IMG/VR virus record: IMGVR_UViG_3300025030_000053
Span: 1 to 64,000 of that record
Reading direction: 5' to 3' (one strand)
Length of the DNA stretch: 64,000 nt
Source of the DNA: a virus
Shown: one piece after another, positions 1 to 27,177 of the stretch
Layout: each line of letters begins with the position of its first letter
Position numbering within the stretch: position 1 is the stretch's first letter
The notes under the pieces: generated by a model
Seen by the model: only the letters and a program-made list of their open reading frames with translations
Told to the model about the DNA's origin: nothing
Database searches by the model: none
Program-made: the position numbers and the translations under genes

Positions 1-332
1 GGGGGATTCACGAAGATCAAGACGAGCCGAAATCAATATATGACATAAGATCAAGGAGGCGCCCAGGTTGGAGTTATGAAGATATGGGATGGCGGCGAGC
101 GGACGAACAAATGTTGAGGGAGCATTTCACAGAGAGGTATCCAGGACTAAGGGCGTGGGAACATCCGCATTCGGTATGGTTTGGAGAAAATCCATCTGAA
201 ACAGCAGAAAATATAGAAAAGGGTGCCAGAAAATTATCAAAAATATACAAAATTCCGCAAGAAGAAATTGAGCGCAGGATTAGGAATCTGATGAGGAGAA
301 TTGGTGCCTATCCAGCATACTGGGACGAATAA
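1..332 (+). CDS. Hypothetical protein, 5'-truncated by the window edge
   Basis: The frame of ORF 84..332 stays open back to position 3 (GIHEDQDEPKSIYDIRSRRRPGWSYED...). Confidence 0.6.
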   Translation, partial: GIHEDQDEPKSIYDIRSRRRPGWSYEDMGWRRADEQMLREHFTERYPGLRAWEHPHSVWFGENPSETAENIEKGARKLSKIYKIPQEEIERRIRNLMRRIGAYPAYWDE

Positions 333-502
333 ATGTTATTTTTAGCGCAAATCAATATATAGAAATATTTGAATTGCAAAGATTACTCAATTGTATAATC
401 AAATATTAGTAATCCATCTGAAAAAATAATTCTAAATATTCTTTCTTCAATCCTGAAAAACCATATGTTTCTATTTAGAACTCTACAAATAATCTGACAA
501 AA

Positions 503-907
503 TTATACTATTGATATAGATTTGTTGTTTATTTTATTATCAGATGACAGAGATATAGAATTCATTATAAAATCTGATTTTTCAAGATATTCAAATTTAC
601 CTTCATTGATTTTATCGTTCAGAACTAAAATTTTCTGTTTTCTTTTTGGATGATATGTCAATCCTAACAATCCACTTTCTAATAATTCTGCAATTTCAAT
701 TTCTATGATGATTCCTTCTTTGTGTTTTTTGGCTGGAGAAAGCAAGAAAAACGCTTCTTCTGGTTCTCTGTCATCATATTGGACCACTGATCTAAAACTT
801 GAAACTTCACCATCAAAATCCACACTTTTCACTTGGCAACCTTGATGAAGATATATCATTCCGTAATCTTTTTGTTTCCTTGATTTTCTTTTCCAAAACC
901 ATTTCAT
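503..907 (-). CDS. Hypothetical protein
   Basis: 134-aa ORF with GGAGA RBS; its start overlaps the purA stop (ATGA). Confidence 0.7.
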   Translation of the reverse strand: MKWFWKRKSRKQKDYGMIYLHQGCQVKSVDFDGEVSSFRSVVQYDDREPEEAFFLLSPAKKHKEGIIIEIEIAELLESGLLGLTYHPKRKQKILVLNDKINEGKFEYLEKSDFIMNSISLSSDNKINNKSISIV

Positions 908-2202
908 TCATTTCTCCATAATATTTGCTTTCTTTCTGGTCCCACACAAACAGAAGAAATTGTAGTTCTTACTACTCGCTCAACAAAATAAACAAATTTC
1001 TTCAATTCAGATGGCAAATCTTCAAAATTTCTGCAATTATCAATTTTTTTACCACAACTCTTCATTTCAATAAAGTTGGGAACAACAGAATAGTATTGAG
1101 TTGAATCGGCTGGAATATAGTCAATTGGAAAACCATCCAGAGAATATCCAACACATGCCTTGAATGAATCAAGTTGCGACAAAATACCCAATCCTGTCAA
1201 ACAAATTGAATCAACACCGCTGAACCTGATTGCTTCTTTCAGAGCCACCAAATCCAACCAAGCAATTCTTCTGGGACGACCAGTAGTCGTTCCATACTCA
1301 TGTGCGATCTCTCTGATGTGGTCAGCCTGAGCACCAAAAAATTCAGTAGCAACAGGCCCGCCTCCCGAACGAGATACATATGCTTTGGCAACACCATAGA
1401 CGTGGTGGATTTTCTCTGTGAAACCAGTGCCAGAAGCAATTCCACCGCAGGCTGTTGTGTTGCTGGAAGTTGTATAAGGAAACACACCTTGATCGATGTC
1501 AAGCAAGGAAGCATTCGCTCCCTCAAACAAAATTCTCTTGCCATCAATATGTGCATTTTGCAACAATCTTCTTGTGTCTGCGATTTTGAATGGGAAGGAT
1601 TGTGTCAAGTCTTCTTCAATTTGTTTGGGATCAAATTCGCTGAAAGGCTCGTCAATCAGATCTGAAAGAGCTTTCAAATACGCATTCTTGATTGTCGCAG
1701 CAAATTTCAATTTCTTTGACAATTCTGTTTGGTTTTGAATATCGCACATTCTGATTGCAGTTGAGCGATGCATCTTGTCGGCATAGCAAGGACCTATCCC
1801 TTTTGCAGTAGTTCCAACAATTTGATTCTGCTCTCTCAATTGCACTCGAAGTTTTTCTTGAAGCTGATCTTCAAACTTGTGCCAGGAAAGAACTACGTGC
1901 GCTCTGTCAGAAACATAAACATTTGGTTCAATTCCGTCTTTTTGCAGATCTTCAATTTCTTGCTTCAATTGAATTGGATCAATCACCATTCCATTACCAA
2001 GGACATTGATTTTGTCTTCCCAAAAAACACCAGAAGGAAGAAGATGGACTGCATATTTTTTGTCGTTGAATTTTATTCCATGTCCAGCATTGGCTCCTGC
2101 ATTAAACCTAACAACCACGTCATGCTGTTCAGTCAAGATGTCTATCAACGAACCTTTGCCGCAATCACCATAGGACAATCCAGATACTACACTATGCATC
2201 AT
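904..2202 (-). CDS. purA: Adenylosuccinate synthetase (PurA family, divergent motifs)
   Basis: YGDCGKG P-loop, NAGH, GTTAKGIGPCYADK, EGANASLLDID..FPYTTSS, EYGTTTGRPRRIAWLD. Confidence 0.93.
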   Translation of the reverse strand: MMHSVVSGLSYGDCGKGSLIDILTEQHDVVVRFNAGANAGHGIKFNDKKYAVHLLPSGVFWEDKINVLGNGMVIDPIQLKQEIEDLQKDGIEPNVYVSDRAHVVLSWHKFEDQLQEKLRVQLREQNQIVGTTAKGIGPCYADKMHRSTAIRMCDIQNQTELSKKLKFAATIKNAYLKALSDLIDEPFSEFDPKQIEEDLTQSFPFKIADTRRLLQNAHIDGKRILFEGANASLLDIDQGVFPYTTSSNTTACGGIASGTGFTEKIHHVYGVAKAYVSRSGGGPVATEFFGAQADHIREIAHEYGTTTGRPRRIAWLDLVALKEAIRFSGVDSICLTGLGILSQLDSFKACVGYSLDGFPIDYIPADSTQYYSVVPNFIEMKSCGKKIDNCRNFEDLPSELKKFVYFVERVVRTTISSVCVGPERKQILWRNE

Positions 2203-3464
2203 TTCATTTCTCCGATCCTAGAAAAATATAAATTGCTTATCTCGTCCCATTTCATTTTATATTTAACATCTATAACAAGTAATTCTATATTGTTGTCTTT
2301 TGCCAATTTAACTTTGGTTTCAAAATCTTTGCAGTATTTCTCAAAATTCTCAATTGGTTGTTTTGGGAATCTTCTATTGTAATCTTCCCAAGAATAATGA
2401 CATGGCTCGTTAAGTTCAACAAGTAAATTTCTTTCTTTTGAATAATAATCATATCTTAATAATCTGTTTTTATCATTTTTATTGAATATATTTTCAAAAA
2501 TTAATCTTGATACAGAATATTCGCCCTCAAAGTCGTTAAATAATTCTTCAAAAACTAAATGATATATTGATTTATTATATCTAATAATTCGTTTTGCTTT
2601 ATTAATATTTCCATCGACACGCCGTGTAATAATGTGACAATTATGACATATGGGATTCCCATCTATTCGAGTACAAATTTTTCTAATTTTATTGCACAGA
2701 AAACATGCATCTGAATTAATTTTTGATTTACAAGATGGACATATTGAAAATCCTTCTTTATTCCTACTATCAACTCGTTTTATTTCATGACAAATTGAGC
2801 ATTCCTCTGTATTCATTCTTCCCTTGCAATTAGAACAAATAGGATTAAAATATATATCTCTGGTGTCGACTGATTTGACCATATTACAGACTGAACATGG
2901 TTCTTTTTTAAATTTTCTTAAACAATTAGAACATATTGGTTCTCCAACAAAATTTCTTGTTCCAATCTTTCCAATTCTGCCGCAAGAAGAACATTGATCT
3001 TTGTGATTTCTGACATAACATTTATGACAAATTGGTTGTTTATTCTCGTCCCTGGTGGCAACTTTTCGATTTTCATTGCATTTACAACATCTTTGTTTAT
3101 TAATATCTAATCTACAATCAGAACAAATAGCATTATTTTTATCATCTCTGGTAGAAACAGGCTTGAATCTATGACAAATGATACATTCTTCATTTGATTT
3201 ATTTTTCATATAACAAGTACTACAAATTGGGTTCTTACTGGCATCTCTGGCGTCAATTCGACCAATTTTTTCACATATTACGCATTTTTCTTTTTTCAAA
3301 TTTCTTCTACAATTATGACAAACTTTTAGTTTATTATCTACTATAAGTTTTAACTCTCTACAATTAGAACAAATTTCTTTATGATTTAATCTGCATTCTT
3401 TTGAACAGAATCTATGATTGTTTCGCCTCGATTTGAATTCTTTTTTACATTCTAAGCATTCCAT
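2199..3464 (-). CDS. Zinc-finger repeat protein with C-terminal PD-(D/E)XK (Vsr/DUF559-like) nuclease; probable homing endonuclease
   Basis: Eight tandem ~32-aa CxxC...CxxC repeats, then LRYDYY..NLLVELNEPCHY..D..K...AKDNNIELLVI; AT-rich relative to purA. Confidence 0.7.
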   Translation of the reverse strand: MECLECKKEFKSRRNNHRFCSKECRLNHKEICSNCRELKLIVDNKLKVCHNCRRNLKKEKCVICEKIGRIDARDASKNPICSTCYMKNKSNEECIICHRFKPVSTRDDKNNAICSDCRLDINKQRCCKCNENRKVATRDENKQPICHKCYVRNHKDQCSSCGRIGKIGTRNFVGEPICSNCLRKFKKEPCSVCNMVKSVDTRDIYFNPICSNCKGRMNTEECSICHEIKRVDSRNKEGFSICPSCKSKINSDACFLCNKIRKICTRIDGNPICHNCHIITRRVDGNINKAKRIIRYNKSIYHLVFEELFNDFEGEYSVSRLIFENIFNKNDKNRLLRYDYYSKERNLLVELNEPCHYSWEDYNRRFPKQPIENFEKYCKDFETKVKLAKDNNIELLVIDVKYKMKWDEISNLYFSRIGEMK

Positions 3465-3533
3465 TAGTCCTCCATATCGTATTCAAGTTTTAAAAACCTA
3501 TGTTTCATTTCATTTCTCCAATTCAAATATTTA

Positions 3534-4079
3534 TTAAATTTCAGATCCCAACTTTGACAGTTCATTATCTACTATTTCTCCCATATCAAATAAAATTTGT
3601 TTTGTTTTTAATAATTTTACCATTGAATCAAAAATATCATTTTCTATGCAATAAAATTTTAATCCATAGGCTCCAACCAAAAATTTGACCTCCATTTTTT
3701 CCGGAGGAGATTCTTTAAAAATTTCTTTTTTGAGTTGACACATCAAATCATCTATATCATTTTGTTTAGGAATATCAGTTGGAGAACCTAATGTAATTAT
3801 ATAACAATAATTTTTATCTATATTTTTCATATATTCTATGATATTTTCAGTATTCAATAGTTCTGAAAATTTTTCATAAATATTATTGTTTTCTTTAATA
3901 GAAATAGGTAAATAGTCATTAGGAACTACAAATGATTGTTTGCCAATATTTTGTTGGATTACTTCTAAATTGTCTTTTAGACCATCATAAGTAATTCTAA
4001 AAGGTTCTTCTCCTATTCCAACTAGCAAACTTTTATTTTTTATATCTTCAAAACTAATTTTTTGAATTTGTATTTTCAT
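3534..4079 (-). CDS. Hypothetical protein, paralog of 4079..4591
   Basis: N-terminus MKIQIQKISFEDIKNK resembles MQIKVQKIPVENIKDK; similar length. Confidence 0.7.
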   Translation of the reverse strand: MKIQIQKISFEDIKNKSLLVGIGEEPFRITYDGLKDNLEVIQQNIGKQSFVVPNDYLPISIKENNNIYEKFSELLNTENIIEYMKNIDKNYCYIITLGSPTDIPKQNDIDDLMCQLKKEIFKESPPEKMEVKFLVGAYGLKFYCIENDIFDSMVKLLKTKQILFDMGEIVDNELSKLGSEI

Positions 4080-4591
4080 TATTTTTCTCCTTTGATTACA
4101 ATCATTGAATTGTCTAATTGTTTAATCATCTGATTCAATAATTCTTTCATTCTGATGATTTGATTAAAATTGCTAAAATGATCAACACAATATATTTCTA
4201 TTGGCATAACCGCAATAAGTTTATTTATTTTATATTTATTAAAACTTATAATCAGTTTCAATAAATCATCATAGTATTGATCTAAATCTAACGAAATCTC
4301 AAATATATGAATGCAATCTGATGATATATCCGACATATATCGTCTCACAACCTCTGCACAATCGTCATAAGATTCACTATCTGTAATCAGGATTTCATCG
4401 GCATCGTCTCTGCACAGCAGAGACGATGCATATCCATCTGGAACTATTGCGACATTATCACTAAAATATTTGAAAGATTCTAATAGTGAATCTATTGTAT
4501 GTTGTTCAGTTGCATCTTGTCCTGATAATTCTAAAATAATAATTTTATCCTTGATGTTTTCAACTGGTATTTTTTGAACTTTGATTTGCAT
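4079..4591 (-). CDS. Hypothetical protein, paralog of 3534..4079
   Basis: AAGGAG RBS; TAATG stop/start coupling to the next gene. Confidence 0.7.
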   Translation of the reverse strand: MQIKVQKIPVENIKDKIIILELSGQDATEQHTIDSLLESFKYFSDNVAIVPDGYASSLLCRDDADEILITDSESYDDCAEVVRRYMSDISSDCIHIFEISLDLDQYYDDLLKLIISFNKYKINKLIAVMPIEIYCVDHFSNFNQIIRMKELLNQMIKQLDNSMIVIKGEK

Positions 4592-4611
4592 TATTTTTCT
4601 CCTTATTCAAT

Positions 4612-5025
4612 TCACGAACGATCTACCGCTCCTTGTAAATGATCTCTGAATCCACCTTCCTGTGTCGATCTGTCTCTTAATATTTTGATCATAGAGTCTT
4701 TGTCCTTAATGTTTTCTGCCCATTCTCCGCAAAAGAAATTGATGGTCAATGGGAAATCATCCAATGGAATATAAGCTTCCAACAAAACATCCCTCCCATC
4801 CGGAATTATCTATGGCAAATATAGTAATCCTATGTTGAATTCCTGAATAAGTGTCCGTTCCTGTTTGAATTACAACTTTATGAGTATCGCCAACAATATC
4901 AGAAATAGCATCGGAAAATTCTTGCAGAACACGATATGGTTTGGAATAAGATTCGTATTGAGTTGGTTGAATAACTTTTTTGTTAAATAACTGCTTTGGA
5001 ATACAATCTGAAAAATATTATTCAT
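4612..5025 (-). pseudogene. Doubly frameshifted ~137-aa gene (pseudogene or sequencing indels)
   Basis: Protein-like text continues across frames: MNNIF / SDCIPKQLFNKKVIQ...TIFAIDN / DGRDVLLEAYIPLDDFP...GAVDRS*; it fills the gap between its neighbours. Confidence 0.5.
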
Positions 5026-5623
5026 CATCTTTCCTTGTGTCAAACATATTTTCAATCAATGAATCAATTTCATTCTCTGAATTTTTTGATTCTTCCAGAG
5101 TGTCATGATTCTTGTTTTCCAACTGCTTGTGCATCTCAACACTATCTAATAGCAGATATTTGATCCACATTCCTGGCAAATAAACTAATGGCTCGCGATC
5201 AATAACAGGTTCTTTGCCCTTGTAGATACTGATCGTTGGTCCTTCATACAAATATTCCTGGTGAACAACTATCTGATATTCACAATTTTCTTTATTAGGG
5301 ACAAACGATGTATATCCTGAATATAAATCGAGTGACCAAATAGATAATCCGCATTCACGGAGTAGTTTTTCTGCCTCTTCGTGAGACATTCCTGATAATT
5401 TACAAAATTTTAGATAATCAAATTGGATTTTGTATAATCGTTTATCAAAAACATCCAATTTTCCATCAACCAAAATTTTATCCAACCAAATTGCCCATTT
5501 CTTCTCATATATATCAACAAGTCCATCCATGTAATCTTTTTTCAGTTTTTGGTCAATCTTTTCCAGTTTCTGTTCAAATTCAGTTTTTTGCTTTTCAGGT
5601 TTTTGCCTTCTTCTCATTTTCAT
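5018..5623 (-). CDS. Hypothetical protein
   Basis: 201-aa ORF with AGGAG RBS, in operon. Confidence 0.7.
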   Translation of the reverse strand: MKMRRRQKPEKQKTEFEQKLEKIDQKLKKDYMDGLVDIYEKKWAIWLDKILVDGKLDVFDKRLYKIQFDYLKFCKLSGMSHEEAEKLLRECGLSIWSLDLYSGYTSFVPNKENCEYQIVVHQEYLYEGPTISIYKGKEPVIDREPLVYLPGMWIKYLLLDSVEMHKQLENKNHDTLEESKNSENEIDSLIENMFDTRKDDE

Positions 5624-6260
5624 CTCCTAAATTCCAGCTCAGCCAAGGCTTCTTCCAATGTGTGGTGCCAACTTCTCCGGTTTCAAAATTGAATGTAATT
5701 GGAGTCGCTATTTGAATGTATGGAAAATCTTTTTCTGCGACTATATGGATTGCATCTTTGAGAGAAATTCCTTCCGGAAGTTCCAAATATCCAAAAATCG
5801 GTTTTCTGACAACACCCCCTTTTTCCACTTCTGAAAGATCTAAAAATTGGATTTTCCAGGAACCATCATTACCCCACACACAACCAGAAACAAAACCTTT
5901 GTCTCCCTCGAACGGAGGCATATCCTCCTCCATATCATCTGCTTTCCACTCTTGTCTGTCATAAACTGGAACATAATATTCCACAGGACAAAAACCAAAT
6001 TGGTCTCGTTCTTCTCCACCTAAATCTTTGCAATCAGGCAGGGACATCACGCGAGTAGCTGTATAGTCTTTTGAGTAAAGTGCATATTCTTTTCCGTTCT
6101 TGGTGAAAGGATAGAACGGACACACTCCGTCATAGTTGCGAACATATTCTCCCACTTTGGTGTCATCAAGGAATATTTCCACCAACAATGAATCCCATTG
6201 ATTAGGTTTGTTCTTGATTGCAGTTTTTTTGATTTTATATTTTTCAGTTATATCTATCAT
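5595..6260 (-). CDS. Hypothetical phage protein
   Basis: 221-aa ORF with GAGGTG RBS; globular composition (ALYSKDYTATRVMSLP, GFCPVEYYVP). Confidence 0.75.
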   Translation of the reverse strand: MIDITEKYKIKKTAIKNKPNQWDSLLVEIFLDDTKVGEYVRNYDGVCPFYPFTKNGKEYALYSKDYTATRVMSLPDCKDLGGEERDQFGFCPVEYYVPVYDRQEWKADDMEEDMPPFEGDKGFVSGCVWGNDGSWKIQFLDLSEVEKGGVVRKPIFGYLELPEGISLKDAIHIVAEKDFPYIQIATPITFNFETGEVGTTHWKKPWLSWNLGDENEKKAKT

Positions 6261-23919: not shown

Positions 23920-26900
23920 CTATTCTGATTGATTTTTACCTTGGTGTCTTTCCATTGCAGTTCTTGTGATCACCTTCATCACCTGATCTATCTTTTCTTT
24001 CACCTCATCTTCCGTGAATCTCAAAACTATCCATCCCATTGACCAAAGGGTTTGGTCCTTTTTCTTGTCTCTCTCAACCTGCTCAATAGACTGATGCCAA
24101 GTTTTCCCATCCACCTCGATGGCTATCTTGAGGCCAGGGAAAGCAAGATCAACCGAAAGATTATTTTGAGAGTAGGGGTAATATTGTGCAACAGAGGCAA
24201 ATGGGAGTTGCCCTGATTGATTTGCTTTCATGATTGCTTCAAACAATGCCATTTCTGCTTTGTTGAACCATTTGTGATAAGCATTGTCCTGTTTTTTATT
24301 GTCTTTACCGGCAAATCTTGCCATTTGGAAAATATCTCTCCCCACAGACACAAATGGCTGCCAGTCTGGATCAAAATCAATCATTTCCAAGTCATCTGGA
24401 ATTTCTCTGATAGATTCCTCTAATGACAAATCAGAACCAGCAACAAATTTCTTTGCCTGCGATACGGCCTCTCTGTGCATTCGAATACGATCCAAAACAG
24501 AAGCAACAGGAGGAGGTGCCCCACCAGGAACGCCCATGTCCATGGCCCCTGGCATACCTGGTGCTGGTGCCGGAGCACCTTCCCCCATAGCACCTGGCAT
24601 CTCTGTCGGCATTGCTCCGCCGACCATTGGTGGCATCCCTCCTCCTGCGCCTATCTCTCCCCCTTCTTGTACTCCCAAACCTAAATCTGGAGATGTCAGC
24701 ATATTGCCCATTTCTTCTTGCTTCAGCAATTCTACTTCAGTATCATAGTCAATGTCGAACTTGGAAAGGAGTGTCTGCAAAGAAATCTCATTCCTTTGTC
24801 GCAATTGAAGAAGATTTGCAATTTCTTGATTGTTTTCTTTCAGTCCAAGGTCATTGAAAACAATTTCTGGATAGATAATTTCTTCAATACCCTTGGGGCT
24901 GACAGATGTAAAATTATTCCATTCAGATACTGGCTTGAATATCTTTTGCTCAATCCAATGTTTGAGTTGATTTCTAAAAGTGTTCAATCTTGCAGCGAGG
25001 GCATCCAACCCTACCTGAGCAGAAGCATAATTCGGTCCTTCACCATGAACCAGCGCTTTGTTCATCTGAAAACCGGAGAGGATGTCTTCATTGATCATTT
25101 CATATTCATCTGTCAGCATCAACACTTTTCCAGCGCTGCCTTCGAATGAATTTCCTTGAATTGTTATTTTCCCATTTCTTCTGGTAACGAAAAATCCTGT
25201 TTCTGTCTCAAAACACCAAACAAAATCATTTCTTTCCACATAATTTTTATGTTCAGATTTAACTTTGGGATATTTACCCCTATTAGATTGCTCAGACCAA
25301 CTTACTCTATATTGTTGATTACCACATTCATTAGTAAATTCTGATATAAGCGGTGCATAACCTAATTTAAAAACTATTTCTTGTACATCATTGGCTAATT
25401 GTTTGGATACTGTATGATATATTCTATATCTAACTTTATATCCTTGATTATCAATTTGAGTTCTTCCATCTCCCTTCATCATAGATTCTAAAATAGTTTT
25501 TAATTTATTTTTTGGTAAATTTTTAATCCAAGATGGTATATTTTTCTCAAAACACCCAGATCCAAAATTATTTTTAAAATATATTGCTAATTTTTTATTT
25601 AGAATATCCCATGAAACTACTTTTTTATTTTCATATTCATATTTGTGATATTTAATTCCAAATTTTAACATCATATTATTAATTTCAGAATAATATTGTG
25701 AATATTTACTTTGACTAATACTAACACGATATTGTCTTGTTTCTTTTTTATATGTAGTATATCCCTCTGATAAATACCATCCTACATATTCCAAATATTT
25801 ATTTATTTCTATTTCTAAATTATCATATATACATACTGAGTCAATATCATTTCCTGGTGATTCCTTCCATTCAGACACCGCCCTGAAATGGTCCCCCGAT
25901 TTAACATTGTCAGCTATGTCAGTATGCCATTCTCCAGAACATCCTTTTTTAATTAACATCTTATGATGTTTGGTGACACATACATCCATTTTAGATGATT
26001 TAAAATTTATCATCTCTCTGTTCTTTGCTTCAAATTTAAATCTATTTTTAAAATTAGAATAATACATTTTTTCTGTATCAGTGTCAAAAATCATTATTTT
26101 TTCAAAATCTGAAACATCATCGTAAAATTTCCATCCATTTTCAGTTAAAACTTCTGTGTCAGAAGAATAGCAAAGATCAAAAGCATGATGCACAACCAAA
26201 GTCAACAACGGATCATTGGCCACTTGAGACAACTGCTCTTGCACTGCTGCCAGATCATCTTCGCTCGCTGGTCTCTGATCTGATCCTACTTTGACAATTT
26301 TGATTGGCAAAATATGTCTGTCAACAACCATCCATTGTGCCTGCCGAAGTTTGTCTCGGTAAGCCAGTGTTGGAAAAAGCCTACGAATCAAAGATGTCCC
26401 ATATGTTTCATAAGGACTTGCTGCGAATTTGAGATGTGTGGCAGCAATAGGATTTAATTTGATTTTTTGTTTAGTTTTGATTCGTTCGCGAATTTCAGGA
26501 GGAATTTGGTTATATATTTCTTCTGGCTTGCCTTTGATGCAAACATCAACCAGTTGATCATTCGGAATCCACTCAATAACAGGATCCTGAGTGCCAAGTG
26601 CTTGAGCAGAAACTTCAATGGTATTTGGGTCAAAAATTGACAACCCTCCCCAAGTAGCACCCTCATGCTCACACGGGCGACCATTATCTGGAATGTTGCC
26701 TGTTCCATGACATGTTGGGCAATCCATTTCAAGCAAAACGAAACAATCTCCATAGGCATAATATTCGTAGGCTATTTGTGGAAGCCATTTGTCTAATTGA
26801 ATTTTTTCTCTGCAAAGTTTTTCAAAATATTCTTTTACTGCTCCATTGGGACATTCTAACTTGTATCCATTCATAGAAAATGAAGAATAAAAATCTAACC

Positions 26901-27177
26901 CAGTAGCCACCAGGGCTTCATTTCGAAGCCAGTATTTTGACCATGCATACACTTCTTTGCGATTGGTTGGAATTTGCCAAGCAGATGCAGTATGCTGCGG
27001 GGCATAGAATCCTGGAGGAGTAGTTGTAATGTTGTACGAATTAGATGTTGACTGGGCAGAAACTTCTAACCCAAAAACAGGTCTCCTGGAGGCTACTACA
27101 TTGGGATTAGCGTATTGAGATTTTTGTGGAGGACCAGAATATTTGACAACTCTGGTATTGGTTTTGTTTTCAGTCAT
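23920..27177 (-). CDS. Portal protein with LAGLIDADG intein and C-terminal DUF559-like nuclease domain
   Basis: EYYAYGDCF, THLK...YGTSLIRRLF, PIKIVKVG portal motifs; intein; VDLAFPGLKIAIEVDGKTWH...RDKKKD...GWIVLRF. Confidence 0.85.
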   Translation of the reverse strand: MTENKTNTRVVKYSGPPQKSQYANPNVVASRRPVFGLEVSAQSTSNSYNITTTPPGFYAPQHTASAWQIPTNRKEVYAWSKYWLRNEALVATGLDFYSSFSMNGYKLECPNGAVKEYFEKLCREKIQLDKWLPQIAYEYYAYGDCFVLLEMDCPTCHGTGNIPDNGRPCEHEGATWGGLSIFDPNTIEVSAQALGTQDPVIEWIPNDQLVDVCIKGKPEEIYNQIPPEIRERIKTKQKIKLNPIAATHLKFAASPYETYGTSLIRRLFPTLAYRDKLRQAQWMVVDRHILPIKIVKVGSDQRPASEDDLAAVQEQLSQVANDPLLTLVVHHAFDLCYSSDTEVLTENGWKFYDDVSDFEKIMIFDTDTEKMYYSNFKNRFKFEAKNREMINFKSSKMDVCVTKHHKMLIKKGCSGEWHTDIADNVKSGDHFRAVSEWKESPGNDIDSVCIYDNLEIEINKYLEYVGWYLSEGYTTYKKETRQYRVSISQSKYSQYYSEINNMMLKFGIKYHKYEYENKKVVSWDILNKKLAIYFKNNFGSGCFEKNIPSWIKNLPKNKLKTILESMMKGDGRTQIDNQGYKVRYRIYHTVSKQLANDVQEIVFKLGYAPLISEFTNECGNQQYRVSWSEQSNRGKYPKVKSEHKNYVERNDFVWCFETETGFFVTRRNGKITIQGNSFEGSAGKVLMLTDEYEMINEDILSGFQMNKALVHGEGPNYASAQVGLDALAARLNTFRNQLKHWIEQKIFKPVSEWNNFTSVSPKGIEEIIYPEIVFNDLGLKENNQEIANLLQLRQRNEISLQTLLSKFDIDYDTEVELLKQEEMGNMLTSPDLGLGVQEGGEIGAGGGMPPMVGGAMPTEMPGAMGEGAPAPAPGMPGAMDMGVPGGAPPPVASVLDRIRMHREAVSQAKKFVAGSDLSLEESIREIPDDLEMIDFDPDWQPFVSVGRDIFQMARFAGKDNKKQDNAYHKWFNKAEMALFEAIMKANQSGQLPFASVAQYYPYSQNNLSVDLAFPGLKIAIEVDGKTWHQSIEQVERDKKKDQTLWSMGWIVLRFTEDEVKEKIDQVMKVITRTAMERHQGKNQSE
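25150..26172 (-). mobile_element. Intein (341 aa) with LAGLIDADG endonuclease, in portal
   Basis: CYSSDTEVLTENGWK, TKHH, VGWYLSEG, MKGDG, VWCFET...ITIQGN|S; AT-rich. Confidence 0.92.

Follow-up and report, generated by a model that had tools for sequence, protein, structure and literature searches.

A probable phage homing-type endonuclease that joins a tandem array of predicted treble-clef zinc fingers to a Vsr-like nuclease domain

The window analysed here is a 64,000-nucleotide stretch of viral DNA, positions 1 to 64,000 of the 105.8-kb IMG/VR virus record IMGVR_UViG_3300025030_000053. At positions 2199-3464 of its minus strand lies an open reading frame (ORF) for a 421-amino-acid protein for which Pfam and PHROGs searches gave nothing significant. 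An earlier reading of the DNA (hereafter the original prediction) described this protein as a natural array of zinc fingers joined to a nuclease, built like an engineered zinc-finger nuclease (ZFN) or a transcription activator-like effector (TALE) nuclease. The locus therefore raises the question of whether a phage encodes such an assembly and, if it does, how the repeats might find DNA and what the gene would gain from cutting it. Our answer draws on the observed repeat anatomy, predicted folds, conserved residues, fusion partners, a second copy of the gene in the same record and the genomic contexts of its homologues. From these we conclude that the protein is probably a free-standing phage homing-type site-specific DNA endonuclease with a DNA-binding array of a new kind.

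The protein is divided into an N-terminal series of cysteine-rich units, a linker and a C-terminal domain, with 17 CxxC motifs and one CxxxC taking up 35 of its 40 cysteines. Its parts are as follows, where GC is the fraction of guanine plus cytosine and C4 denotes a four-cysteine unit.

2199..3464, minus strand: whole gene of the putative zinc-finger-array nuclease, 421 amino acids, GC 0.28 against a genome median ORF GC of 0.355
3393..3458, minus strand: N-terminal unit CxxC-x13-CxxxC, residues 3-24, ending F-C-S-K-E-C; its xYCSxxC is conserved in family members
3309..3371, minus strand: short C4 unit C-x2-C-x13-C-x2-C, residues 32-52
2637..3284, minus strand: seven canonical fingers, residues 61-276, with a period of 32-33 amino acids, each predicted to form a knuckle, a beta-hairpin and a helix beginning at the second CxxC
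2574..2636, minus strand: predicted helical linker between array and nuclease, residues 277-297
2202..2573, minus strand: predicted Vsr-like (PD-(D/E)XK superfamily) nuclease domain, residues 298-421, 124 amino acids, with an alpha-beta-beta-beta-alpha-beta core

The seven C-x2-C-x16-C-x2-C units start at residues 61, 94, 126, 158, 190, 222 and 254, the last of them with x15 in place of x16. Together with the short unit they make eight C4 units, and with the N-terminal unit, which we take to resemble FCS/TRASH-type fingers, nine putative zinc sites. The original prediction of eight C4 repeats of about 32 amino acids thus had the number of C4 units right, and the period for seven of them, with the amendments that one unit is shorter (x13) and that a further unit stands at the N-terminus. 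Its consensus is borne out, with valine or isoleucine at position 10, arginine at 13, aspartate or asparagine at 14 and P-I-C at 19-21, and the variable dipeptides that it singled out (DA, ST, AT, GT, DT, DS and CT) are indeed positions 11-12 of seven units. Short DNA repeats within the gene are spaced at multiples of 96 nucleotides, and since the same unit also recurs nearly throughout the related proteins described next, the finger pattern is not a product of chance.

A HMMER scan over 1.84 billion cluster representatives returned 532 that match the 421-amino-acid protein at E<=0.001, and the best 150 of these 532 were examined. Nearly all of them contain a finger array, with anywhere from 1 to 17 fingers, and the names given to array proteins in the source databases, where there are any, are "hypothetical" throughout. 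What varies most instructively in these 150 is the part outside the array. It is a Vsr-like domain like that of the 421-amino-acid protein in 14 proteins, and an HNH-type tail in two families, one of 25 proteins, for which the assignment comes in part from the motif, and one of 10; single HNH variants also occur, and several of the HNH proteins are covered by PHROG 1035 ("endonuclease VII"). In a further tail family of about 42 proteins, the members matched by Pfam have a tyrosine recombinase, to which some add a GIY-YIG domain at the C-terminus. Single cases carry a DDE transposase, a MerR-type helix-turn-helix (HTH) and a LAGLIDADG_2 domain, the last combined with two fingers and a Vsr-like domain in one protein (P0016, encoded at L013:356-1735 on the plus strand), whose gene adjoins that of a 1231-amino-acid DEAD-box helicase. 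All of the array's partners are DNA-acting, and the majority are typical of mobile elements. For this reason we read the array as a portable DNA-targeting module, a conclusion for which the evidence, drawn from sequence comparison, is indirect but strong. The array is in any case a widespread domain on mobile-element enzymes, and in the literature, of which not all journals were covered, we found no description of periodic arrays of 7-17 homologous C4 fingers shared by HNH, LAGLIDADG and Vsr-like nucleases, tyrosine recombinases and a transposase.

Within this family, P0036, P0039 and P0014 are 866-1071 amino acids long with 11-17 fingers (8 fingers in the P0014 cluster). P0036 and P0039 add both a tyrosine recombinase and a C-terminal GIY-YIG domain to the finger array, an architecture of which we found no description. 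The P0014 cluster, from metagenome-assembled genomes (MAGs) of Propionibacteriaceae and Micrococcales, has a tail of the same family without a Pfam recombinase match.

What kind of finger is this? In the full-length AlphaFold model, with a predicted local distance difference test score (pLDDT) of 84.6 and a predicted template modelling score (pTM) of 0.47, each finger has a knuckle bearing the first CxxC, a beta-hairpin leading to the third cysteine and a helix that starts there and holds the fourth. DSSP, for example, assigns strands E67-73 and E79-81 and helix H82-87 around C61, C64, C81 and C84. The fingers are accordingly modelled as treble clefs of the GATA/LIM kind, which share the C4 ligand set and this predicted order of knuckle, hairpin and helix from the second CxxC. 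A zinc ribbon, the label suggested by Pfam DZR and DZR_2 matches of relatives (DZR_2 matched 18 of 104 relatives and not the 421-amino-acid protein), was rejected, as the second CxxC opens a helix in all modelled units. With GATA fingers the units also share the spacing R-D-x-x-G-x-x-[IL]-C before the second CxxC, and a profile search of PDB sequences gave weak finger matches to ribosomal S29 and to a GATA3 chain (E 0.076 for GATA3). GATA proteins, however, have an x17 loop and one or two fingers, where the array has x16 and eight, and the Pfam GATA profile PF00320 had no match in the phage record at E<=10, so membership in the GATA-type family was also rejected. For the array, the best Foldseek matches were weak and fell on LIM-domain tandems (PINCH1 and LMO4, E 2e-3 to 2e-2), with the two-finger GATA3 DNA-binding domain in the same list; against PDB, Foldseek gave no match at E<=1e-3 for either the full-length or the nuclease-domain model. 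The net charge of the array is +28, and related arrays are positive in 147 of 147 cases, with a median of +3.25 per finger.

If the array reads sequence, it does not appear to do so through a dipeptide code. TALE repeats are near-identical and differ mainly at one fixed dipeptide. The original prediction suggested that the variable pair at positions 11-12 might likewise encode base specificity, and it proposed comparing repeat number and dipeptides among homologues. Repeat number does differ, from 1 to 17, but the pair is not exceptional. Per-position entropy over 46 finger units of the family is 3.10 and 3.17 bits at positions 11 and 12, and positions 9, 15, 18, 22, 23, 25, 26 and 28 are as variable, all ten falling at 3.1-3.4 bits on a scaffold fixed at C1, C4, V10, R13, G17, I20, C21 and C24. 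Between fingers of the 421-amino-acid protein, moreover, identity is just 22-41%. With some ten equally variable positions in every finger, a code like that of the TALE repeat-variable diresidue (RVD) is not supported, and we rejected it; if there is any code, it would be spread over hairpin and helix. Of the likeness to ZFNs and TALE nucleases, the architecture stands, as does, on the indirect grounds of DNA-acting partners and charge, the array as a DNA-targeting module, while the TALE-like code is speculation. We think it a long shot that the 32-amino-acid treble-clef finger reads DNA as a module, a few base pairs being recognized by the variable hairpin and helix positions of each finger. 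Such a unit, joined as it is to at least four nuclease classes, to tyrosine recombinases and to a transposase, would be compact, protein-only, re-targetable and of phage and bacterial origin, unlike C2H2 fingers and TALEs.

The second half of the question concerns the C-terminal domain, in which the following residues and motifs stand out.

2520..2522, minus strand: E315, invariant, candidate equivalent of Vsr E25 and I-Bth0305I E170
2448..2450, minus strand: D339 in the invariant L-R-Y-D-Y, candidate metal-binding aspartate (Vsr D51, I-Bth0305I D196)
2397..2417, minus strand: E350-L-N352-E353-P-C-H356, invariant E-x-N-E-x-x-H motif, with N352 a candidate for I-Bth0305I N208 and H356 for H213 (general base)
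2313..2315, minus strand: K384, invariant, located on the helix that precedes the final core strand, roughly at the place of Vsr D97, its role being presumed

The AlphaFold model of this domain, made with 13 homologues in the alignment, reaches a pLDDT of 91.8 and has an alpha-beta-beta-beta-alpha-beta core, which DSSP resolves, in domain numbering, into H23-31, E36-40, E60-65, E70-75, H94-113 and E117-122. Strand 2 carries D62 and strand 3 carries E73, so the model places acidic residues on strands 2 and 3 as in the core of the PD-(D/E)XK superfamily. The canonical (D/E)-x-K of strand 3 is absent; strand 3 reads E-L-N, as in the Vsr branch, and an invariant lysine sits on the following helix. 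Of the structure comparisons made, VIA-align and BFVD were those that informed. Exhaustive structural comparison of the nuclease domain ranked a RAP domain first (9g6k, Z 8.5), DNA-bound Escherichia coli Vsr second (1cw0, Z 8.0, root-mean-square deviation 3.3 over 110 residues) and the catalytic domain of I-Bth0305I third (3r3p, Z 7.2). The full-length model keeps this order, and over both models the ranges are Z 8.5-8.9 for RAP, 8.0-8.3 for 1cw0 and 7.2-7.8 for 3r3p, with 1vsr at Z 8.0; the tail of matches, at Z<=6.3, holds other PD-(D/E)XK nucleases, namely DUF559, VRR_NUC, TnsA, Hjc and restriction enzymes. BFVD, which holds predicted viral structures, gave 51 matches at E<=1e-3, annotated among other things as phage homing endonuclease, group I intron protein, DUF559 and DUF2726, and ESM Atlas scores were uninformative at <=0.80. 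At the sequence level, a Pfam scan of the protein at E<=1 found no Vsr or DUF559 match, the profiles PF04480 (DUF559) and PF03852 (Vsr) run against the phage record did not match its gene, and the nuclease-domain alignment, compared with E. coli Vsr by hhalign, scored a probability of 0.1%. The "Vsr/DUF559-like" nuclease of the original prediction thus survives as a predicted fold, with its well-scored model and its matches to 1cw0 and 3r3p, and not as sequence-level membership in DUF559 or Vsr; since those profiles do not match, we call it a new branch of the Vsr-like fold and not a member of either Pfam family.

The closest known design is that of I-Bth0305I and the EDxHD family, phage homing endonucleases in two parts, an N-terminal DNA-binding region and a C-terminal Vsr-like domain, the latter predicted in our case. 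The EDxHD motif of I-Bth0305I consists of E170, D196, N208, H213 and D222, and its family has a conserved acidic residue two positions before the asparagine (PMC3239194). In the 421-amino-acid protein, E315, D339, E350, N352, E353, H356 and K384 are invariant in 10-14 homologues; E315, D339, N352 and H356 share the order E...D...N...H of that motif, and E350-x-N352 repeats the extra acidic residue two places before the asparagine. For the final aspartate there are candidates (E353, K384 and D399) and no clear counterpart, and an invariant K384 occupies the helix that corresponds to that of the final aspartate, unlike in the EDxHD family. I-Bth0305I is, furthermore, intron-encoded and has two NUMOD/HTH motifs, whereas our protein has a nine-unit zinc-finger array and a free-standing gene. 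The description that suits the gene best is that of a variant among Vsr-like (EDxHD-type) homing endonucleases, one whose tandem array of treble-clef fingers would stand in for the usual NUMOD/HTH targeting region. The same phage has a second Vsr-superfamily nuclease domain, of another sequence family, in the only match of the DUF559 profile in the record, at 23962-24156 on the minus strand (E 1.6e-11, above the curated cut-off), at the C-terminus of a 1085-amino-acid ORF at 23920-27177.

Zinc modules have been attached to nucleases in other ways. Treble-clef (DUF4379) or zinc-ribbon proteins with DUF559/Vsr-like nucleases, such as those of Listeria phage P70 and Klosneuvirus found in BFVD, have a zinc-binding N-terminal module and the same nuclease fold. 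A protein of this type encoded on L001, with a zinc module and a Vsr-like nuclease, is 35% identical to residues 318-398; its kind have one or two zinc units of another family, in contrast to the 7-9 homologous fingers in tandem here. Natural zinc-ribbon HNH nicking endonucleases are phage-encoded as well, with extra zinc modules thought to extend their specificity; their zinc sites number one or two, with four in one fusion, and they recognize 3-7 base pairs (Xu and Gupta, PMC3592412). Like the 421-amino-acid protein they join a phage nuclease to zinc modules, and unlike it they have an HNH catalytic domain and no periodic array. Engineered ZFNs (a C2H2 array with FokI) and R2 retrotransposon proteins follow the same logic of a string of zinc fingers and a nuclease domain, and the R2 nuclease is also of PD-(D/E)XK type and among the weak fold matches of our protein. 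The C2H2 fingers of ZFNs, however, are beta-beta-alpha units of 28-30 amino acids, in contrast to 32-amino-acid C4 treble clefs that are natural and prokaryotic-viral.

How does such a gene come to lie here? Free-standing homing endonuclease genes (HEGs) sit beside conserved genes, and this one lies, as the original prediction stated, directly before purA.

2199..2202, minus strand: ATGA, in which the nuclease stop codon overlaps the purA start codon
904..2202, minus strand: downstream neighbour, adenylosuccinate synthetase homologue (purA-like), from Pfam and PHROG matches

The overlap implies co-transcription and translational coupling, and a promoter and terminator scan gave no signal above shuffled background. 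Outside the window, at 75575-76762 on the minus strand of the record (L009:7576-8763), is a paralogue of 395 amino acids, 45% identical overall, with seven fingers, the N-terminal unit and a like nuclease domain. It lies directly upstream of dnaE (DNA polymerase III alpha), whose start it overlaps by about 35 nucleotides. Between the two copies, identity is 64% for the nuclease domain and 22-53% for the fingers, which show no one-to-one correspondence. Two neighbouring 96-nucleotide units of the paralogue are 80% identical, which indicates a recent duplication of a unit. GC is 0.28 for the purA-side gene and 0.23 for the dnaE-side paralogue, set against the record's median ORF GC of 0.355. Each copy is an ORF of its own beside a conserved gene, and the window's copy lies inside neither an intron nor an intein. 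Rfam found no intron RNA around the window's gene at 1-6000, and we rejected an intron-encoded gene on that basis.

Homologues occur at eight metagenome loci and on two contigs binned as a Candidatus Woesebacteria MAG, and the contigs that carry them share almost no other genes with the phage record. The homologue is always the AT-richest gene of its neighbourhood (GC 0.16-0.33, flanks 0.32-0.40), and its neighbours include purF, a gyrB-like gene, a DEAD helicase and an AAA ATPase, with one copy between glycosyltransferase genes. One homologue, just upstream of a GyrB-like ATPase gene and present in two separate metagenome assemblies (L016:8738-9797 and L017:31-1090), runs through three reading frames with at least two frameshifts and is probably a decaying copy. 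The family thus shows the patchy distribution, atypical composition and decay known from free-standing HEGs, with a GC signal that is moderate in the phage's own genome, and the genomic setting as a whole matches that of such genes in phages. A search of GenBank phages by tblastn with the 421-amino-acid protein and with P0004 gave no match, to which the low-complexity filter may have contributed.

If the protein acts as a homing-type endonuclease, its basic nine-finger array would lie along the DNA and pick a long target, and the C-terminal Vsr-like domain would then cut nearby, with D339 binding metal, H356 serving as the base and E315, E350, N352 and E353 helping. Relatives without the gene would be cut at the corresponding locus, and in this way the gene would spread or keep competing phages out. 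For the copy at 2199-3464 the locus would most plausibly lie in or beside purA, and for the paralogue at dnaE, although purA as a target is speculation.

Could the array instead bind DNA without reading it? As a clamp, ruler or spacer, much as the single zinc finger of I-TevI is a distance determinant, it would leave specificity mainly to the nuclease domain near the cut. The specificity of I-Bth0305I is concentrated around its cleavage site (PMC3239194), the high and uniform positive charge would fit backbone binding, and the model's pTM, at 0.47, suggests a chain of flexibly strung beads. We nevertheless consider such a role unlikely. The arrays of the two paralogues have diverged far more (22-53% identity per finger) than their nuclease domains (64%), finger number runs from 1 to 17 across the best 150 of 532 representatives, and some ten positions per finger are hypervariable on a fixed scaffold; together these make the pattern expected of a specificity module. 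Equally, one might ask whether the array touches nucleic acid at all, since its best Foldseek matches are LIM tandems (PINCH1 and LMO4, E 2e-3 to 2e-2), and LIM-like domains could form a protein-protein scaffold that brings the nuclease to a complex of the phage or the host. The LIM matches are weak and share their list with GATA3, the net charge is strongly positive, and the array is fused to many unrelated DNA enzymes, each of which would need a DNA-targeting part, so that a scaffold seems to us very improbable.

A different possibility is that the nuclease serves the phage and is not selfish, either degrading the DNA of the host or of competitors, with a modification to protect that of the phage, or acting as a RAP-like RNA-directed endonuclease with RNA-binding fingers. 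RAP domains of mitochondrial RNA-binding proteins are among the top fold matches (Z 8.5-8.9), and translational coupling to purA would suit a gene in the phage's service. On the other hand, the array's partners elsewhere are DNA enzymes of mobile elements (HNH, LAGLIDADG, recombinase and transposase), the gene is spread patchily over unrelated phages with one decayed copy, and in this phage two diverged copies stand beside two different conserved genes, all of which makes a phage-serving role quite improbable in our judgement.

The reading of the protein as a homing-type endonuclease has points of its own to answer. Zinc binding, DNA binding, cleavage, target and mobility are things that we infer from models, conservation and context. 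None of the Pfam profiles for Vsr, DUF559 and GATA gives a match, nor does hhalign to E. coli Vsr, so the nuclease assignment rests on a predicted fold with Z of about 8, which is middling on the comparison tool's own scale; what adds weight to these matches is that the leading ones, Vsr, I-Bth0305I and RAP, belong to one structural subgroup, and that the conserved residues point the same way. The fifth residue of EDxHD, the aspartate, has no clear equivalent in the 421-amino-acid protein, and the array's best fold match is to LIM domains, which bind proteins and not DNA. When the products of purA and dnaE were used as queries against IMG/VR and GenBank phages, nothing closely related to the phage turned up (41% identity was the best for a PurA from GenBank phages), nor, in consequence, did a HEG-less allele of the locus. 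Low GC, finally, is not unique to the gene, which is 16th lowest of 96 ORFs.

Several observations lie to the side of this argument. The product of the purA homologue at 904-2202 on the minus strand matches Pfam adenylosuccinate synthetase at 5e-133 and a PHROG that holds PurZ-type enzymes at 2.5e-90. On the other flank, two small adjacent ORFs, 3534-4079 and 4079-4591, both on the minus strand with GC of 0.24 and 0.28, lie in the same low-GC stretch as the nuclease gene and resemble each other weakly, as paralogues (21% identity, E 0.008), without a family match. Among the homologous loci, a 5-kb viral contig has three separate nuclease-domain matches within 2 kb (L002:1596-3404), which may be a cluster of related nuclease genes. 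The two homologue-bearing contigs L020 and L021 (LBWB01000019.1 and LBWB01000018.1) carry phage-like genes in the Candidatus Woesebacteria bin, a MAG of the Candidate Phyla Radiation (CPR), and are equal in length to the metagenome contigs L011 and L015; they may be mis-binned phage contigs or come from a phage of CPR bacteria with two copies.

Neither Vsr-like homing endonucleases nor phage nucleases with a single zinc finger or ribbon are new. Should each finger of the array prove to read its own stretch of DNA, there would be a third natural modular code by which proteins recognize DNA, alongside those of C2H2 fingers and TALEs, and a small one, at about 96 nucleotides of gene per finger. 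Even without finger-by-finger reading, the array would be a widespread unannotated DNA-targeting domain of mobile elements, and the nuclease domain a new Vsr-like branch, and recognizing the two would improve the annotation of phage and actinobacterial genomes.

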